64,000 bases of DNA, taken from NCBI GenBank assembly GCA_040752335.1, contig JBFMEV010000014.1, positions 575 to 64,574 of the forward strand, written 5' to 3'. The DNA is from Chloroflexota bacterium (lineage in GTDB: Bacteria > Chloroflexota > Limnocylindria > Limnocylindrales > CSP1-4). Position 1 is the first letter of the stretch. Each line of letters starts with the position of its first letter. A model generated the notes under the pieces. It saw nothing but the letters and a program-made list of their open reading frames with translations. It had not been told where the DNA came from and ran no database searches. This document shows, in pieces, positions 3,187-51,632 of the stretch. Position numbers and translations under genes: made by a program.

Positions 3187-4596
3187 TCAGTCGTCCAGGA
3201 CCCGGGCCAGGTCGGCGATCAGGTCGTCGGCGTGTTCGCCGCCGACGGACAGTCGGATCTGGCCGCTCGGGACGGCGGCCAGGGCGCGGCCTTCCTCGCC
3301 CTGCTGCTGGTGAGTCGAGATGGCCGGGATCGTGGCCACGGACTTGACCCGCCCGAGGTCGGTCGCTCGCCAGATGAGCTCGAATCGGTCGAAGATTCGC
3401 CGAGCGGCCAAGGCGCCGCCGCGGACAGTGAAGGCGAGCAGCGAGCCGTAGCGGTTGGCCGGCCGTCCGGTCGCGTCGCCGTCGGCCAGCCACATGTCCC
3501 GGGTCGCGAGGTCGTAGCCGGGCTGGCCGGGCAGGCCGGGGTAGGCGACCGACTCGACCGCCGGGTGGCCGTCCAGGAACCGGGCCACGGCCAGCGTCGT
3601 GGCGCTCCAGGCGTCCATGCGCAGGCGCAGGTCGCGGAGATCGGACAGGATGGCCATGGCAGAGAGCGGAGCCAACCCGCCGCCGTGATCGCGGGCCGGC
3701 AGGAGCTTGACCCACCGCGCGAAGTCGGCCCGCTGCTCGTCGGTCCCGGCGACCCAGACGAGGTCGTGGCGGGCGATGAGGGCCCCACCGATGGCCAGGC
3801 CACTGCCACCGATGGCCTTGGAGAGCGAGTGAACGACGATGTCCGCCCCGAGGCCGAGCGGCCGCAGGAGGGCCGGCGTGGCGACCGTCGAGTCGACGAT
3901 CAGGGGAAGGCCGCGGGCGTGGGCGATCTCGGCCACGGCCGCCGTGTCGAACATGGCCAGGGCCGGGTTGCTGGGCAGCTCGCCGTAGACGAAGCGGGTG
4001 CTCTCGTCGATGACGCAGTCCCAAGCGGCGAGATCCATGGGGTCGGTGACCCAGCGGATGTCGATACCGCGCTCCCGGCCGTAGCGCTCGGAGAAGAGCA
4101 TGAACGTGCCGCCGTAGCACTTCGCCGAGACGACGATGTTCGGGCGCGGCGCACTCGAGCCGCGGTCAGCCAGGAAGGGGCTGGTGGCGATGTGGATCGC
4201 GGCCATGCCCGAGGCCGCCACGTGGGCCGAGGCCGTCAAGCGGGTCCCATACGTCTCGAGCAGAGCAAGCGTCTCTTCCAGGTAGTGGAGGGTCGGGTTC
4301 GCGATCCGGGTGTAGCCCCAGGCCGGCATCCGATAGGCCAGGGCCGTTTCCAGCTGGTCGCTGTCGACGAAGTGCTGGGCCGGGCTCAGGTAGGTCGGCT
4401 CCAGGATGCTGCCCTGGTTGTCGAGGGCGGCGGCCATGTCGTAGACGCCATGGACCGCGATCGTGTCGAAGCGCATCCGGCGCATCCGTGCCCGGCGGGC
4501 CTCCTCGGCCGCGGCGAGATCCTCACCGACCGCGGCCCAGCGGTCGACTCCGGGCGAGGGGTCCAGGGTGGGGGCGGCGAGCGCATCGATAGACAA
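3187..4596 (-). CDS. Cys/Met metabolism PLP-dependent enzyme (O-acylhomoserine sulfhydrylase / gamma-lyase family)
   Basis: YTRIANPT, ASGMAAI, LIVDST, VHSLSKAIGG (PLP Lys), IRLSVGGE; start placed at TTG 4596 behind GGAGG. Confidence 0.88.
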   Translation of the reverse strand: MSIDALAAPTLDPSPGVDRWAAVGEDLAAAEEARRARMRRMRFDTIAVHGVYDMAAALDNQGSILEPTYLSPAQHFVDSDQLETALAYRMPAWGYTRIANPTLHYLEETLALLETYGTRLTASAHVAASGMAAIHIATSPFLADRGSSAPRPNIVVSAKCYGGTFMLFSERYGRERGIDIRWVTDPMDLAAWDCVIDESTRFVYGELPSNPALAMFDTAAVAEIAHARGLPLIVDSTVATPALLRPLGLGADIVVHSLSKAIGGSGLAIGGALIARHDLVWVAGTDEQRADFARWVKLLPARDHGGGLAPLSAMAILSDLRDLRLRMDAWSATTLAVARFLDGHPAVESVAYPGLPGQPGYDLATRDMWLADGDATGRPANRYGSLLAFTVRGGALAARRIFDRFELIWRATDLGRVKSVATIPAISTHQQQGEEGRALAAVPSGQIRLSVGGEHADDLIADLARVLDD

Positions 4597-4610
4597 GGCG
4601 AGCCTCCGGT

Positions 4611-5096
4611 TCAGATGGGAAGGGCGGTCGTGCGCTTGACTTCGGCCAGAACCAGGCTGGTCTGGATCCGGGCGACGCCCGGCAGGGGGGTGAGCTTCTC
4701 GACGACGAACCGCTCGAGCGCGCGGCGATCGGGCAGGGCGACCTTGAGGACGTAGTCGAACGGCCCGGTCACGTGGTGGCACTCGAGCACCTCCGGCATC
4801 CGGCCCAGGAGCTCGCGGGTCCGGTTGACCCGCTCGGCGTCGTGGAGCTGCATGCCGACACTGATGAGGCAGAGCAGGTCGAAGCCCGCCTTCTCGATGT
4901 CGACGATCGCCGCGTAGCCTTGGATGACGCCGGCCGACTCGAGGCGACGGACCCGGGCATGCGTGGCGGCGGGGGACAGGCCAATCCGGCGGGCGAGATC
5001 CAGGTTGGACAGGCGTCCGTCCAGCTGGAGCGTCCGAAGGATCGATCGGTCGAGGTCGTCGAAGGGCTGGGCGTACACGGGCCCACCGTCAGTCAT
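4611..5096 (-). CDS. Lrp/AsnC family transcriptional regulator
   Basis: DDLDRSILRTLQLDGRLSNLDLARRIGLSPAATHARVRRLE; C-terminal ECHHVTGPFDYVLKV. Confidence 0.95.
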   Translation of the reverse strand: MTDGGPVYAQPFDDLDRSILRTLQLDGRLSNLDLARRIGLSPAATHARVRRLESAGVIQGYAAIVDIEKAGFDLLCLISVGMQLHDAERVNRTRELLGRMPEVLECHHVTGPFDYVLKVALPDRRALERFVVEKLTPLPGVARIQTSLVLAEVKRTTALPI

Positions 5097-12131: not shown

Positions 12132-14186
12132 TCAGCCACGCACGACCCCGGCGAGGAGCAGCCCGATGACGAGGAACCCCCCGAAGGCCAGGTGGAGCCT
12201 GGCGGTCTGGAGGTCGATCATCGCGATCGCCCGGGCCTGGCCCGTCGCCCCGAGCTCGGCCGAGCGGACGACCTGGGCGAGAAACGGCAGCGACACGATC
12301 GCCAGGAGCGTCGGCGGCGGCAGGAGCGAGAAGGCGACCGACAGGCCGAGCGTGATGTAGGCCCCCAGGACGAGGGCGACGTAGCCGTAGTGGGCCCAGT
12401 CCTTGCCGACCCGGGACGACAGCGTCACGATGCCGGCCCGGGTGTCCTCGCTGATGTCGCGCCACTCGTTGCCGTGGAGGATGGCGGCCACGAGGAGTCC
12501 CACCGGCACCGACAGAACGACGGCCACAGGGCTCCAGGCCCCGGTCACGGCGAAATAGCTGCCGACGACCATGAGCGGGCCCATGAGCAGGAACACCAGC
12601 GGCACGCCGAGGGCCCGGTACTTGTACTGGAGCGGCGGCGCCGTGTAGCCCCAGCCGCCGATCAGCCCGGCCAGGCCGAGGGCCACGATCGCCGGGCCGC
12701 GGAGGACCACGAGGTACAGGCCCACCGCGACCGCCAGGAGGAAGGCCAGGCCGGCGACCAGGAACGCGCCGCGCTCGGTCATCCGGCCCTTGACGATGGC
12801 GTGGCTCGCCCGCGGCGAGACGATCGTGTCGATGCCCTGGCGGACGTCGTAGATCTCGTTGACGATGTTTGTCCCGGAGTGCAGGAGGACCGCCCCGGCC
12901 AACGCGGCCAGGAACGGCAGCCAGTCGAACCGGCCGTCGACGGCCGCGAGCGCGGCGCCGGCGCTGACCGGGATGACGGATGCCGTGTAGGCGAACGGCC
13001 GGACGATCTCCCAGGTCGCCCCGAGCCGCCGCCGGACGGTTTCCGCGGCGCCGAGGCGCCGGTCGTCGGCGAGCGCCGAAGCAGGCGCCGCCACGACCTC
13101 GGGCGCCACCGTCTCCTCCGGCGCCGGCGCAACCCACCGGGCGGTCGCCGGCAGCTCGGCATACATCGCCGCCGCCGCGATGAGCTCGTCGATCTGGCGC
13201 TCCTCCTGGAGGACGGGCTGGAGGAGCGGCAGGCCCAGGCCCGTCTCGACGTGGAACGCCAGGGCCTTCGCGGCGACGTCCTCGCGAGTGCCGCAGAGCA
13301 TGAAGGCATCGAGGAGCTCGTCGGGAATAAGATTCCCCGCGAGGGTGTAGTCCTCGGCCCGCCAGGCCACGGCGATCCGGTCTCGCAGCTCGACCTCGAA
13401 GCCGGCCCGCCGCAGGGACACGTCGGACAGGACCGACATCATGTAGATGACGAACGGCTCGCGCTTCGCCCGGTTGAGGGCCTCGCGCCGCGTCCGGTCG
13501 ACGAGCGACAGGAGGTAGCCGGCGGTCTCGATCGAGCCCGGGTCGCGACCTGCCTCGATGGCCGAGGCCCGGAGCCGCTCCAGGATCCCCCGGAGCGAGG
13601 GGATCGACTCGGCCGGCCGGGCCAGGTAGCCGTCGGCCTTCTGACCCGCGAGCTCCACGAACGCCCGGCGGTACGCCGCGATGACGAGCGCGATTCGGTG
13701 GGGCGGCGGGAACATCGGCTGGATCGGCGGCAGACCGGGCGTCGCCGACGGCAGCCGCTCGCCGGCCCACAGGGCCCGGATCTGGTCCATCGCGGTGGAC
13801 ACCCGCTCGACGGCTGCATCGGGCTCGTACGGGATGCCCATCTGCTTCAGCCGCAGCGGCAGGCCCGTGCCCAGGCCCATGACGATCCGGCCGGGCAGGA
13901 TTTCGTCGAGGGCCGAGCCAGTCATCGCCAGGACGACCGGATGCCGGGTGAACGGGTTGACCGCGCCGAGGGCGACCCGGAAGCCGCCGTCCTCGTTCTC
14001 GCCGTCGCGGGCCAGCCCGTCGACGACCGTGGTCGCGAACGAGACCGCGTCCCGCTCGAAGTACGAATCGTGGATCCAGAGCGACTCCAGGCCCGCGTCG
14101 CGGGCGCGCCGGGCCCAGTCGAGGACGTCATCCGGATCGTCCCGGGCGGCCAGGCCGAGGCCGATGGGGCGGGCGAGGGTGCGCAT
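12132..14186 (-). CDS. Fusion: N-terminal luciferase-like (LLM, Mer-like) oxidoreductase plus C-terminal UbiA/MenA-type prenyltransferase
   Basis: N-terminus LWIHDSY, AVNPFTRHPVVLAM, GRIVMGLGTG; C-terminus WEIVRPFAYTAS, NIVNEIYDVRQGID, WGYTAPPLQYKY, NEWRDISEDTRAG; one continuous frame through an Ala/Pro linker. Confidence 0.88.
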   Translation of the reverse strand: MRTLARPIGLGLAARDDPDDVLDWARRARDAGLESLWIHDSYFERDAVSFATTVVDGLARDGENEDGGFRVALGAVNPFTRHPVVLAMTGSALDEILPGRIVMGLGTGLPLRLKQMGIPYEPDAAVERVSTAMDQIRALWAGERLPSATPGLPPIQPMFPPPHRIALVIAAYRRAFVELAGQKADGYLARPAESIPSLRGILERLRASAIEAGRDPGSIETAGYLLSLVDRTRREALNRAKREPFVIYMMSVLSDVSLRRAGFEVELRDRIAVAWRAEDYTLAGNLIPDELLDAFMLCGTREDVAAKALAFHVETGLGLPLLQPVLQEERQIDELIAAAAMYAELPATARWVAPAPEETVAPEVVAAPASALADDRRLGAAETVRRRLGATWEIVRPFAYTASVIPVSAGAALAAVDGRFDWLPFLAALAGAVLLHSGTNIVNEIYDVRQGIDTIVSPRASHAIVKGRMTERGAFLVAGLAFLLAVAVGLYLVVLRGPAIVALGLAGLIGGWGYTAPPLQYKYRALGVPLVFLLMGPLMVVGSYFAVTGAWSPVAVVLSVPVGLLVAAILHGNEWRDISEDTRAGIVTLSSRVGKDWAHYGYVALVLGAYITLGLSVAFSLLPPPTLLAIVSLPFLAQVVRSAELGATGQARAIAMIDLQTARLHLAFGGFLVIGLLLAGVVRG

Positions 14187-14302
14187 GGCTGGCTCCAGGT
14201 CGGCGGCTCCGGGCGACGACACCGCCCGTGGCAAGCGCCCACATGCTACCACGGTGTAGCCGGTTATTCGCCAGCCCGCCGGCCGTGCGACAATCGCCGG
14301 CG

Positions 14303-15313
14303 ATGCGCCTCGACGACCGCTTCGACGACCTGATCGCCGCGCTCGGTGGGTTCTACCGAACGTGGCTCGTGTTCCTGGGCGTGGACCTCGGCTTCTTCCG
14401 TGCCATCCGGGCGGCCGGCGACGGAGGCCTCCGGGTCGAAGACCTGGCGCGCCGGACGTCGACCCACCCGCGGGCGGTGGAGACGTGGGCCTGGGCCGCC
14501 GACGCCCACGGCCTCGTCCGCTCCGAGGCCGGCGCCCTGACGATCGATCCGGAGACCGCCCTCATCCTCCTTGACGAGCAGCGCTCGGAGTTCCTCGGCG
14601 GCCAGTTCGTCCACTCGGTGGTGGCCACCCTGGACTGGGACCGGATGATCGACTTCTTCCGGACCGGCGTGCCGATCCCGTCGCGTCCGGACCGCTACAG
14701 GGCGGCGATAGAGCAGGTGACACGCCAGGACATCGCCGTCTTCTTCAGCGAGGGCCTGGCGGCCCTGCCTAACCTGGTCGCCAGGCTCGTCGCCGGCTGC
14801 CGGGTCCTCGACGTCCACTGCGGCGGCGGCCGCTGGCTCGTGGCCATGGCCCAGCGCTTCCCCGACCTCCGCCTCGTCGGCATCGAGGCCGAGCCGGATT
14901 CCATCGCCAGGGCCCGCGAGCTCATCGAGGAGAGCGGGCTGAGCGATCGGGTCCGGATCGAGCCGGTGGCCCGCGACGAGGTCACCCGGCCCGGCCGCTT
15001 CGACCTCGTGTACTACCAGTACGCGCTCCATTTCCTGCCCGATCCGGCAGCCTCGCTGCGGGCGTCGTGGGAGGCCCTCGACCCGGGTGGCAGTCTCGTG
15101 GTCCTCGACTGGCTCCTGCCCACCGATCCCGCCGACATGCGGACGATCCACGGCGAGCTCATCGCCGGCGTCCACCTCGACGAGGTCTTCATGGGCGCCG
15201 GGCTTCGCGACGCCGCCGCGTATCGGGCCTGGTTCGCCACGGCCGGCATCCCCGAGCCGGCAGTCATCGAGCTGCCGTCGGGCGCCACGCTGATCGCCGT
15301 CGATCAGCCCTGA
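14303..15313 (+). CDS. Class I SAM-dependent methyltransferase with N-terminal winged helix (Rv2258c-like)
   Basis: Variant motif I VLDVHCGGG, FDLVYYQYALH, LDPGGSLVVLD; TGc-GACAAT 8 nt before ATG. Confidence 0.85.
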   Translation: MRLDDRFDDLIAALGGFYRTWLVFLGVDLGFFRAIRAAGDGGLRVEDLARRTSTHPRAVETWAWAADAHGLVRSEAGALTIDPETALILLDEQRSEFLGGQFVHSVVATLDWDRMIDFFRTGVPIPSRPDRYRAAIEQVTRQDIAVFFSEGLAALPNLVARLVAGCRVLDVHCGGGRWLVAMAQRFPDLRLVGIEAEPDSIARARELIEESGLSDRVRIEPVARDEVTRPGRFDLVYYQYALHFLPDPAASLRASWEALDPGGSLVVLDWLLPTDPADMRTIHGELIAGVHLDEVFMGAGLRDAAAYRAWFATAGIPEPAVIELPSGATLIAVDQP

Positions 15314-19360: not shown

Positions 19361-19433
19361 GACCGGCGAGTCCCGGATCCGCCGCGGCCAACCACCTGTT
19401 CGTATTGCGAGCAGGCATCGCTCGAACGAGCTT

Positions 19434-19493
19434 GACCTCCCCCCAGGCTCATGCCGATTCTGTCGAAACTGGGGGTGGGTCACCCTCATTCGT
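19434..19493 (+). repeat. 60-bp REP-like palindromic element, copy 1
   Basis: GACCTCCCCCC...GGGGTGGGTCACCCTCATTCGT; the same ends occur inverted at 20689-20749. Confidence 0.75.
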
Positions 19494-20688: not shown

Positions 20689-20749
20689 ACGAATGAGCGT
20701 GACCCACCCCTGACTTCGTGCGATTCCTGCAGGAAGTCGGGGGGAGGTC
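20689..20749 (-). repeat. 61-bp REP-like palindromic element, copy 2 (inverted)
   Basis: Reverse complement reads GACCTCCCCCC-gacttc...gaagtc-AGGGGTGGGTCACGCTCATTCGT. Confidence 0.75.
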
Positions 20750-20795
20750 GTGCTCACTCATCGCGATCGTGCTCGCCGGCCAAGCACCGCCCATT

Positions 20796-20853
20796 GCGGA
20801 CCCGCGGCGGCGACGCCAGGCGGACCCGCGGCGGCGACGCCAGGCGGACCCGC
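20796..20853 (+). repeat. 24-bp tandem repeat, about 2.4 copies
   Basis: gcggacccgcggcggcgacgccag twice plus gcggacccgc. Confidence 0.9.
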
Positions 20854-28587: not shown

Positions 28588-29297
28588 CGGATCGCCTGCC
28601 CGAGCTGCCCGAGCACGTGCGGATGCTCGTCGCCGAGATCGAGACCGAGATCGGCGAATCGGAGGAAGCGGCCCTGGCCGCGCCGATCGAGGGCTCGCGC
28701 CTCCGTGGCCCGAACGGCGTTGGGTCTCGCAACGGCCGCGTCGAGGAGGCCGTTCGGGACATCCTCGTCGAGATCGGCGAGGACCCCGACCGCCAGGGCC
28801 TCGTCGGGACGCCCGACCGCGTCCACCGGATGTACGCCGAGCTGACCGCCGGCTACCACGTGGATCCCGAGCGGCTCCTGAACGGCGCGATCTACGACGT
28901 CGCCTACTCGGAGATGGTCCTGGTTCGAGACATCCCGTTCTACTCGCTCTGCGAGCATCACCTCCTGCCGTTCTTCGGCACGGCCTCCGTCGCCTACATC
29001 CCGCGAGGCCGGGTCGTGGGCCTGTCGAAGATCCCCCGGATCGTCGAGATGTACGCCCGGCGGCTCCAGGTCCAGGAGCGGCTGACCCAGCAGATCGCGG
29101 ACTTCCTCAACGAGCGCCTCGAGCCCCAGGGCGTCGGCGTCGTCATCGAGGCCAACCACCTCTGCGCGGTCATGCGCGGCATCCGGAAGCCCGGCACGGT
29201 CATGACGACCTCGGCCGTCCTGGGCCTCTTCCGCACCCGCGACCGCACCCGGGCCGAGTTCCTCAGCCACCTCCAGCGGCCGACCCCGGGCGGTTAG
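28584..29297 (+). CDS. folE: GTP cyclohydrolase I
   Basis: [43 protein letters not shown]. Confidence 0.96.
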
Positions 29298-29361
29298 CTC
29301 CGGCCCGACCCGCTCGTGCCCGCCCGCACCCGTCGCCGTCGGCCCCCGCTACTGCTCCACC

Positions 29362-29509
29362 GGCGCGAATCGCCGCCAAACGTCGAACGAGCCGACCGCG
29401 CGGCGCCGCTCCGCCATCGAATGGCGTCCTGGACCGCCAATCGACGCCGGACCTGACATCTCTGCCTCGAGCGGCGCCCGATCTTCGTCGTTTGGCCGCG
29501 ACCAGCGCC
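29362..29509. repeat. About 150-nt imperfect palindrome upstream of the HTH-nuclease gene
   Basis: Outer arms 29362-29387 / 29484-29509 (21/26 complementary); inner arms 29402-29411 / 29469-29478 (10/10). Confidence 0.75.
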
Positions 29510-29579
29510 AGGTGCCCGGTGAGCCCGCCGGGAAGAGCCAGGTGAGCGGGCGATACGTGGCCGACGCTAGCCTGAGGCC

Positions 29580-30230
29580 ATGCCAGTCCATGATGCGGCG
29601 GCCGACCGCGGTGCTCGGCGCAGCCGCTCCCTGCGCACACGCCTCGCCGCCGACCTCGAGGCAGCGCGCATCGCCGCCGGCCTGAGCTACCGGGAGCTCG
29701 GGCGCGGATCGGGAATCGATCGTGAACGGGTCACCCTCGCACTCCGCGGGGACCCGCATGCTCTCACCATCGATGTCGCGGCGCGGATCGCGCCGGTCGT
29801 GGGCCTGGAACTGGGAGCGTCGCTCCACCCCGATGGCGATCCGGTCCGCGACCGGGCGCACCTCGCCCTGATCCGGCGGTTCCGCGTCAGGCTCGGACCG
29901 GGGCTCGCCTGGATCTCCGAGGTCCCCGTCCCCATCGCCGGGGACCGCCGCAGCGCGGATGGCGTGATCGAGGGCCCGAATGTGGAGATCTACGTCGAGG
30001 CAGAGACCCGCCTCGGCGACGTCCAGGCGCTCGAGCGGTCGATCGCCGGCAAGCAGCGCGACCTCGGGATCGCGCGCGTGATCCTGCTCGGGGCCGACAC
30101 CCGTCACAATCGTGACGTGATCGCCCGCGTGCCAGAGGTCGTGGCGCGGTTTCCGATCGGGACGCGCGCCGCGATGGCCGCGCTATCGCGGGGCCGAGCC
30201 CCGGCTGGCGACGCGCTGGTGGTCATCTGA
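29580..30230 (+). CDS. XRE-like HTH protein with putative PD-(D/E)XK-like C-terminal domain
   Basis: ARIAAGLSYRELGRGSGI (HTH); SEVP..RSADG..IYVEAET..QALER..KQ resembles a restriction-endonuclease fold; TAGCCT 6 nt before ATG. Confidence 0.7.
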   Translation: MPVHDAAADRGARRSRSLRTRLAADLEAARIAAGLSYRELGRGSGIDRERVTLALRGDPHALTIDVAARIAPVVGLELGASLHPDGDPVRDRAHLALIRRFRVRLGPGLAWISEVPVPIAGDRRSADGVIEGPNVEIYVEAETRLGDVQALERSIAGKQRDLGIARVILLGADTRHNRDVIARVPEVVARFPIGTRAAMAALSRGRAPAGDALVVI

Positions 30231-30260
30231 TCGGGAGACGTCCAACGCCGCGGGGTTGGG

Positions 30261-30803
30261 CTACTCAGGGTCCTCCCGGAGCCTGGCGTACAGGACGAGG
30301 TCGTGCCAGGCGCCCGCCCGCCACTGGGCGCTGCGATTGATGCCCTCGCGGGTGAAGCCGGCCTTCTCGAGGGCCCGCTGCTCGGCGACGTTCTCGACGT
30401 CGGTCGAGGCCTCGACCCGGTGGGCGGGCGTGGTCTCGAAGAGGTACCCGGCGATGAGCCGCTGGGCCTCGGTCCCGTACCCCTGGCCGCGAGCCGCGGG
30501 GAGGAGATCGATGCCGAACATCCAGGCGTCCGATTCGGGGTTCGGGCCGTAGCGCACCCGGTGCCAGCCGATCGTGCCGATCACAGCTCCGTCCTCGAGT
30601 CGCTCCACGAGGAGCAGCCCGTTGTGGTCATTCCGGAGGGGGCCGCGGGCGAGGGCCTCCCGGTCGACCGCCTCGAACGGCATTCCGAAATCGTTGAAGC
30701 CACCGTCCGACTTCTGCAGGCGCTGCAGCTCGTCGATCGCGTCGGCGTCGTCGAGGGTCGCGTCGCGGAGCCTGACGCGCGGCCCCGAGAGGGTTTCGTT
30801 CAC
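30261..30803 (-). CDS. RimJ/RimL-type GNAT acetyltransferase
   Basis: [27 protein letters not shown]. Confidence 0.9.

Positions 30804-51557: not shown

Positions 51558-51632
<75 letters not shown>

Follow-up and report, generated by a model that had tools for sequence, protein, structure and literature searches.

A gene in an uncultured soil member of the Limnocylindria (Chloroflexota) and a family of palindromic DNA units dispersed in the same and related genomes are probably (we put this at roughly 0.6) a cognate pair that follows the logic of the repetitive extragenic palindromic (REP) doublets forming hairpins (REPINs) and the REP-associated tyrosine transposases (RAYTs), with a non-HUH enzyme that appears to be a domesticated nuclease. 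The gene occupies positions 29,580-30,230 on the plus strand of the window, the whole 64,000-nt stretch analyzed here (C14:575-64574 of the high-GC source genome, whose assembly comprises 3.2 Mb in 84 contigs and is 94% complete), and its open reading frame of 216 aa encodes a helix-turn-helix (HTH) protein with a predicted PD-(D/E)XK-fold domain. The palindromic unit, of about 150 nt, lies just upstream at 29,361-29,510 and is the gene-proximal copy of the dispersed family. All named relatives are metagenome-assembled genomes (MAGs) from Limnocylindria; below, G numbers designate genomes, L numbers loci and C numbers contigs of the source genome.

The unit holds the nested inverted repeat that was described in the initial annotation, with outer arms of 26 nt at 29,362-29,387 and 29,484-29,509 that pair at 21/26 positions (81%) and inner arms at 29,402-29,411 and 29,469-29,478 that pair at 10/10. 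The 161-nt segment containing it folded with z = -3.9 on the plus strand and z = -5.5 on the minus strand, and none of 200 dinucleotide shuffles was as stable. The family consensus retains the outer stem only, the inner 10/10 stem being peculiar to the window copy. Unit alignments revealed that each unit contains three boxes of 18 bp that follow the pattern TGGxy-N8-y'x'CCA. In the window, the left box (29,361-29,378) is an imperfect CGGCG-N8-CGCCA followed at 29,379-29,389 by AACGTCGAACG, which is the window version of the conserved CGACGAAGG motif; the middle box TGGCGTCCTGGACCGCCA (29,422-29,439), located by a pattern scan, matches TGGCG-N8-CGCCA perfectly, with ATCGACGCCGGA after it; and the right box, TGGCC-N8-CGCCA (29,493-29,510), is preceded at 29,483-29,492 by CTTCGTCGTT and ends 69 nt before the start codon. 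Across the family alignment, (A/T)(A/C)CGACGAAGG follows the left box, its complement precedes the right box, and CGACGCCGGAG follows the middle box. The window unit aligns with two copies upstream of the L021 orthologue and with one in L025. When 17 copies were aligned, 88% of the cells paired, compared with 75 +/- 1.3% in column shuffles (0/500 reached the observed value) and at most 53% in slid registers, and compensatory changes were found in 14 of the 25 consensus pairs, among them helix 4, which corresponds to the middle box (UA:8 versus CG:7).

The stable predicted folds, above all that of the minus strand, and the compensatory pair changes across copies would also suit a palindrome that encodes a structured RNA, i.e. 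a leader, a riboswitch or a small RNA, rather than one recognized at the DNA level. We consider this explanation highly improbable because an Rfam 15 scan of the entire window gave a tRNA at 51,558-51,629 as its sole match and the palindrome matched no family at gathering score, because units are found on either side of the gene and in either orientation, because the mRNA appears to be leaderless with a promoter downstream of the unit (see below), and because the compensatory changes are limited to symmetric half-sites that track the recognition helix of the protein.

The proposal that the palindrome belongs with the gene was borne out by comparison with the relatives, in which the orthologues have homologous units at their flanks, with separate versions in other clades and beside paralogues. 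A unit-profile search of 8.6-kb orthologue loci returned 21 matches, all of them located 17-403 nt from the gene and none elsewhere, with units lying upstream, downstream or on both sides (L022, L024, L025) of the orthologue and in either orientation. The same adjacency of unit and gene was observed in the genomes G042, G048, G041, G051, G045, G020 and G006. Moreover, in 601 kb of loci, the density of generic long inverted repeats within 300 nt of a family gene was about 15-fold that of the remaining sequence.

The dinucleotide that distinguishes the boxes changes together with the start of the recognition helix of the HTH (DRER with CG, GHD(L/R) with TC, and SHTQ with AA). The helix start G(I/V)DRER, which in the window protein is GIDRER at residues 45-50 (29,712-29,729, plus strand), is accompanied by TGGCG boxes in the window, L021 and L027; GVGHD(L/R) is accompanied by TGGTC boxes in eleven loci; and G(I/V)SHTQ, typical of a clade about 50% identical, is accompanied by TGGAA-N10-TTCCA boxes in six loci, in five of which the boxes lie near -212 and -65. 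The perfect sequence TGGTC-N8-GACCA was found 18 times near GVGHD(L/R) genes and TGGAA-N10-TTCCA 10 times near G(I/V)SHTQ genes, and neither was among the commonest box types far from the genes. Judged from these sequences, such covariation is the pattern expected if the HTH reads the boxes. The (C)GACGAAGG motif beside the boxes is constant across most box-type clades, and the more conserved nuclease domain may be what reads or cuts it. Separately, a fourth box type, TGGAA-N8-TTCCA, was seen with an SHTK helix in L018, where the orthologue is immediately preceded by a gene for an IS110-family transposase (metagenome contig, 3,584-4,621).

The dependence of the units on the gene was analyzed by running a covariance model of the unit and a protein scan over 41 genomes of the genus, all of them incomplete MAGs, with an orthologue of at least 51% identity counted as intact. 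Of the 12 genomes whose orthologue is intact, 11 contain units (2-38 matches, both strands included), compared with 6 of the 29 other genomes (1-6 matches), an association with p = 3.8e-5 by the Fisher test and p = 7e-7 by the Mann-Whitney test. The gene copy of G019 carries an in-frame TGA, and the G019 genome is devoid of units. A search with PF01797, the family of Y1/HUH transposases, gave no match in the 94%-complete source genome, and six control genomes scored.

The N-terminal part of the protein, residues ~19-80 (29,634-29,819, plus strand), was assigned to an XRE-type HTH domain on Pfam, profile and fold matches. On its own, the window protein scores 18-19 bits against Pfam HTH_31 and HTH_3, under their cut-offs of 23-27, and precomputed PF01381/PF13560 matches exist for most homologues. 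A profile built from 36 family members matches XRE regulators in the PDB at 7e-6. In the AlphaFold2 (AF2) model, residues 7-73 are helical with a predicted local distance difference test (pLDDT) score above 90 and adopt a five-helix lambda-repressor-like fold, which Foldseek superposes on ClgR (3f51) with a root-mean-square deviation of 1.4 A and on HipB and HigA2 with probability 1.00 (1.4-2.8 A over the ClgR/HipB range). The XRE-like HTH of the initial annotation is thus confirmed by the family profile and by superposition on ClgR and HipB, with the single-sequence Pfam scores remaining below cut-off.

Because the HTH swamped the full-length fold search, the C-terminal domain (residues 88-216; 29,841-30,227, plus strand) was modelled alone, which gave a pLDDT of 87 and a predicted template modelling score of 0.83. 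Structure prediction of this domain, the check proposed in the initial annotation, yielded a nuclease-type alpha-beta-beta-beta-alpha-beta core (H8-18, E26-28, E44-48, E51-58, H64-78, E82-87), whose Foldseek neighbours in the PDB are Bax1, EcoT38I, R.BspD6I, Hjc, SfsA, XisH and the R2 restriction-like endonuclease (RLE), and whose neighbours among viral models (BFVD) are homing endonucleases, VRR-NUC, Mrr and RecU. The top matches are all PD-(D/E)XK nucleases except for a few at probability <=0.21, and probabilities reach 0.99-1.00; XisH (2okf) has the highest query-normalised TM-score (0.50), and Bax1 and EcoT38I have the best E-values. The candidate catalytic residues are E114, D122, D127, E140, E142 and K158, which include the D..ExE..K pattern noticed at the outset. 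In 36 sequences reaching down to 36% identity, D127 is nearly invariant and the other five are invariant. D127 is located on strand 2, E140 and E142 on strand 3 of the predicted core, and K158 on the following helix. These data suggest that the C-terminal domain has a PD-(D/E)XK-type fold, and by its fold class and conserved residues the protein may be able to cleave DNA. The C-terminal ~130 residues gave no sequence match in Pfam, NCBIfam, PDB, PHROGs or PADLOC. The architecture is nevertheless widespread: 367 homologues of the protein were collected, mostly 216 aa long, and a search of 1.84 billion proteins with the C-terminal domain yielded 1230 cluster representatives at E <= 1e-3, almost all of which have the same ~216-aa architecture.

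A nuclease fused to an HTH could also be a restriction-like defence or addiction enzyme whose HTH acts as a built-in controller (C-protein-like), the boxes being control sites. In agreement with this idea, the HTH weakly resembles controller proteins of restriction-modification systems, and the fold matches of the C-terminal domain include type II restriction enzymes. However, there is no adjacent methyltransferase or other defence gene; PADLOC 2.0 left the nuclease domain unmatched and returned only weak HTH matches (controller protein, CapH), in paralogues only; and neither the syntenic housekeeping context nor the dispersed three-box units would be explained. A defence or addiction role therefore seems very doubtful.

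The start of the gene was studied by aligning 85 upstream regions of orthologues and paralogues anchored at the start codon. In 64 of these loci the start codon, ATG or GTG, is preceded at a distance of exactly 6 nt by a NANNNT hexamer, shifted registers reaching at most 13, and a Shine-Dalgarno-like motif was found in 9/85 regions. The window gene conforms to this arrangement, with the -10-like hexamer TAGCCT at 29,568-29,573 (plus strand), 6 nt before its ATG. This register implies, on sequence grounds, that the family mRNA is leaderless and that the promoter lies downstream of the unit; as the register extends across the 85 loci, the leaderless-type start first suggested for the window gene would be a family trait. 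A look for public sequencing runs that contain the locus returned none. Two direct repeats, GGTGAGC and GATACGT, are located 11 bp apart at -39 and -28 (29,541-29,558, plus strand). Direct repeats of the form G(G/A)T(G/A)AGC, in 2-5 copies with 11-bp phasing and with positions that peak at -39 and -28, were identified in the 85 upstream regions, and they precede every family gene irrespective of box type.

The unit profile detected five copies in the source genome, the window copy and four solo copies at C1:146488-146642, C8:23841-24009, C17:12425-12576 and C38:21455-21609. The unit has terminal inverted repeats, and the solo copies retain the entire three-box structure; two of the four lie between convergent gene ends and not at promoters. 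One of them, C38:21455-21609, located between convergent genes, has no counterpart in the orthologous gap of G009, G002 and G010. In G042, which harbors 19 copies with a median pairwise identity of 57% and a maximum of 82%, conservation reaches >=80% in the boxes and the CGACGAA motif, and the spacers are free to vary; since boxes and motif are kept while the spacers drift, the units appear to be under selection as sites. Taken together, units are gained and lost between species, without a recent burst.

Some observations were made around the C17 solo copy. That it splits an aminotransferase gene was considered and rejected: the full gene lies ahead of the unit, and beyond the unit 122 nt of its 3' end are duplicated. 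The two segments (G000:C17:12282-12403 and 12675-12796; L138) are 81% identical, the duplicate lying 270 nt downstream with the solo unit in between. The adjoining region of C17 from 12,850 to 15,000 has a low third-position GC content and may be an integrated element.

The gene order HDAC-folE-[unit]-gene-[unit]-mutB is maintained in at least a dozen species whose folE genes are 74-86% identical, and other orthologue contexts were found in L017, L018 and L019. Where folE is 84% and mutB 88% identical, the protein is 62% identical, so that the gene evolves faster than its neighbours; it is mostly inherited vertically. The gene is also dispensable, being decayed or lost in some lineages. In G009, the closest relative with the GNAT gene that lies downstream in the window, the folE-GNAT gap contains a decayed remnant ('RAQTALRRFRARL|ADTQHNREV') that joins residues 92-105 to 172-180 and is without the catalytic core, the HTH and the unit, and in G003 and G005 other genes occupy the spot downstream of folE. 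The wider family is represented by 0-7 copies per genome in the genus and by zero in a streamlined sister family. The initial annotation had described a minimal selfish or domesticated element; a gene that is syntenic between folE and mutB, single-copy per clade and decaying in some lineages fits the domesticated alternative better and the selfish one less.

The source genome contains four paralogues, 36-44% identical, three of which have their own long palindrome within 100 nt. Solo copies of the palindromes beside the paralogues on C23, C1a and C1b are few or absent in the source genome, so that a dispersed family for each paralogue is not shown there. RNA folding in sliding windows around the paralogues was not informative at the 70% GC of this DNA. 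Downstream of one paralogue (L011 2161-2371, equivalent to G000:C1:199100-199320) there is an array of short hairpins, CATACGC-N4-GCGTATG, with a second array copy at G000:C26:345-564. A distant member of the HTH-nuclease superfamily at G000:C8:16830-17435 has an in-frame TGA and is probably a pseudogene, and further distant members are present at C1:30289, C13:5219 and C40:16376.

Genes bracketed by units (L022, L024, L025, G042) raise the question of whether the unit-gene-unit block transposes as an autonomous element resembling an insertion sequence (IS), with the nuclease as transposase and the solo units as its miniature inverted-repeat transposable elements (MITEs). The differing contexts in L017, L018 (next to the IS110 transposase) and L019, the 0-7 family matches per genome in one genus, and the paralogues of the source genome would agree with such an element. 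Nevertheless, orthologues reside at the same folE-mutB site in the dozen or more species mentioned above; there is one copy per clade per genome, and no identical or near-identical gene copies were seen, the paralogues being only 36-44% identical; and no target-site duplication was found, in flanks too diverged to read. We therefore regard an autonomous IS-like element as improbable.

The main rival to a cognate nuclease-unit pair is a pure binding protein, that is, an ordinary transcription factor or chromosome-site binder (ParB/parS-, MatP/matS- or SlmA-like) whose boxes are host-kept operators or organizing sites, whose nuclease-like domain serves dimerisation or sensing, and whose units are immobile. 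The boxes do resemble the classic operators of dimeric HTH proteins, and they vary in step with the recognition helix; the copies are old with the boxes alone conserved; the gene is syntenic and vertically inherited; in several genomes the downstream unit precedes the mutB/meaB operon; and the number of units per genome is low (1-19). This rival fits the age of the copies, and it fits less well the catalytic-type residues, the location in convergent gaps and the dispensability of the gene. Binding alone would account less readily for the conservation of E114, D122, D127, E140, E142 and K158 down to 36% identity, for solo copies that keep the whole three-box unit, half of them between convergent gene ends, for a solo copy that is an insertion absent from three relatives, or for a gene that is repeatedly lost or decayed and whose absence from the streamlined sister family indicates that it has no essential role. 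We consequently view the binding-only explanation as unlikely, though the least so of the alternatives weighed here.

Several observations weigh against the proposed nuclease-unit pair. The copies within a genome are old and diverged, without the REPIN-like burst of near-identical copies, and their age fits host-kept sites as well as it fits mobility. An insertion polymorphism was documented only once, the C17 solo copy being shared with G002, and at the C38 site no target-site duplication is readable in relatives whose intergenic DNA is too diverged to align. Six genomes have a few units but no gene, and G049 has the gene but no units, exceptions that are hard to weigh because the MAGs are incomplete. 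With respect to the protein, the best Foldseek E-values are only 5e-3 (PDB) and 1e-3 (BFVD), so that, despite the high probabilities, the assignment is to a fold class and not to a family. In addition, the position of the canonical (D/E)xK lysine is occupied by E142, and the candidate K158 is displaced to the next helix, an arrangement known in some PD-(D/E)XK families. Finally, the 11-bp-phased promoter repeats are constant whatever the helix type, which points to another factor or binding mode in the regulation of the gene.

The model that we propose for the nuclease-unit pair is as follows. The protein, probably as a dimer, would recognize through its XRE-type HTH the 18-bp boxes TGGxy-N8-y'x'CCA, three per ~150-nt unit. 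The gene-proximal master copy, which ends 69 nt before the start codon at a putative leaderless promoter, probably allows the protein to control its own synthesis. The PD-(D/E)XK domain would act on the units, the cut most likely falling at or close to the invariant CGACGAAGG / CCTTCGTCG motif that adjoins the boxes; an alternative substrate would be a cruciform or hairpin formed by the unit. This activity may occasionally copy units into new intergenic sites, or it may be needed to keep them. The gene itself would be a chromosomal, mostly vertical resident of the folE-mutB site, present in one copy per clade and dispensable. A bolder version, which we offer tentatively, is that this is a second, independent invention of the REPIN/RAYT lifestyle, in which the nuclease reads the three phased boxes, cuts the CGACGAAGG motif or a cruciform and copies the unit to new intergenic sites, and in which helix start (DRER, GHD, SHT) and box dinucleotide (CG, TC, AA) form a simple evolvable code that keeps several paralogous pairs apart in one genome.

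The closest known parallel is provided by the REP/REPIN and RAYT (TnpA_REP) 'REPtrons' of Proteobacteria, in which an HUH/Y1 transposase is paired with a doublet of 20-40-nt REP hairpins (PMC3116915, PMC3337134, PMC3479197, PMC8266576). The system described here resembles them in having a single-copy, vertically inherited chromosomal gene flanked by its own palindromes, further repeat copies scattered through intergenic regions without a gene beside them, an association of the repeats with presence of the gene (11/12 versus 6/29 incomplete-MAG genomes), and different gene clades that pair with different repeat sequences. In contrast to REPtrons, the enzyme combines an XRE HTH with a predicted PD-(D/E)XK fold rather than being an HUH/Y1 transposase, the unit is ~150 nt with three 18-bp dimer-type boxes instead of a hairpin doublet, the copy number is low (1-19), and the copies are strongly diverged, without near-identical populations. 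A literature search found only REP/RAYT work and no description of a pair formed by an HTH-PD-(D/E)XK protein and a palindrome.

Other known elements share single features with the pair. Enterobacterial repetitive intergenic consensus (ERIC/IRU, intergenic repeat unit) sequences, Correia elements, Rickettsia palindromic elements (RPEs) and MITEs are intergenic units of 100-200 nt with terminal inverted repeats that are polymorphic between relatives, as is the unit studied here; unlike in those families, a partner protein can be named here by adjacency and helix covariation, and neither a DDE transposase nor a target-site duplication was seen. ParB/parS systems likewise have a palindromic site of ~16-18 bp in a few to ~20 copies per chromosome, with copies beside their own gene, and differ in that the second domain here has a nuclease fold and is not a CTPase, the composite three-box units are gained and lost, and the gene is dispensable. 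With XisH (the fdxN-element excision-controlling factor), Hjc, SfsA, the nuclease domain of Bax1, the small subunit of R.BspD6I and EcoT38I the protein shares the fold class; it differs from all of them in lacking a detectable sequence relationship, in its displaced catalytic lysine and in the XRE HTH fused at its N-terminus. None of these nucleases is known to be paired with a dispersed three-box unit.

Regarding the genetic neighbourhood, the 3' end of folE (GTP cyclohydrolase I) is at 29,297, and a 282-nt spacer separates it from the 216-aa open reading frame. A GNAT acetyltransferase gene (30,261-30,803, minus strand), found in only 5 of 41 relatives searched, is convergent to this frame and ends 30 nt past its end. 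Beyond it are the genes for the small subunit of methylmalonyl-CoA mutase and for MeaB, so that the gene does stand alone among housekeeping genes, as first annotated. The gap downstream of folE is a variable spot in the genus (window 29,298-30,260 versus L102, L104 and L105); where the window has the HTH-nuclease gene, G009 retains the decayed remnant, G003 has an O-methyltransferase-like gene and G005 a DinB-like one.

The initial annotation had further suggested that the nuclease might spread the repeats at 19.4 and 20.7 kb of the window. These are ~70-nt hairpins (GACCTCCCCCC...GGGGGTGGGTCAC.CTCATTCGT) at 19,428-19,493 and 20,689-20,755, in inverted orientation, that bracket a 1.2-kb segment. 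They belong to a different hairpin family (GACCTCCCCCC...GGGGGTGGGTC), unrelated to the three-box unit, of which the genome has at least 8 copies (on C19, C32, C31, C46, C6 and C2), none of them adjoining a family gene. As partners of the 216-aa gene they were therefore rejected, and the units on which the protein acts are probably those of its own three-box family. Close to the second hairpin, a 24-nt segment (GCGGACCCGCGGCGGCGACGCCAG) occurs twice at 20,796-20,843 as a perfect tandem duplication.

Dispersed palindromic repeats are common in bacteria, and to our knowledge a partner enzyme is known for one kind only, REP with RAYT. Limnocylindria are abundant, uncultured Chloroflexota of soil and freshwater, and they carry many dispersed palindromic families for which we know of no enzyme. 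The locus described here names a candidate partner of a different enzyme class for such repeats, and it offers a 216-aa protein, a defined 18-bp box, a conserved putative cleavage motif and a predicted helix-to-box code. If the nuclease moves or maintains the units, palindromic-repeat 'symbionts' would have evolved on more than one occasion, using catalytic machinery of unrelated kinds; otherwise, the locus would still show clearly how a new family of site-specific binding proteins co-evolves with its DNA.

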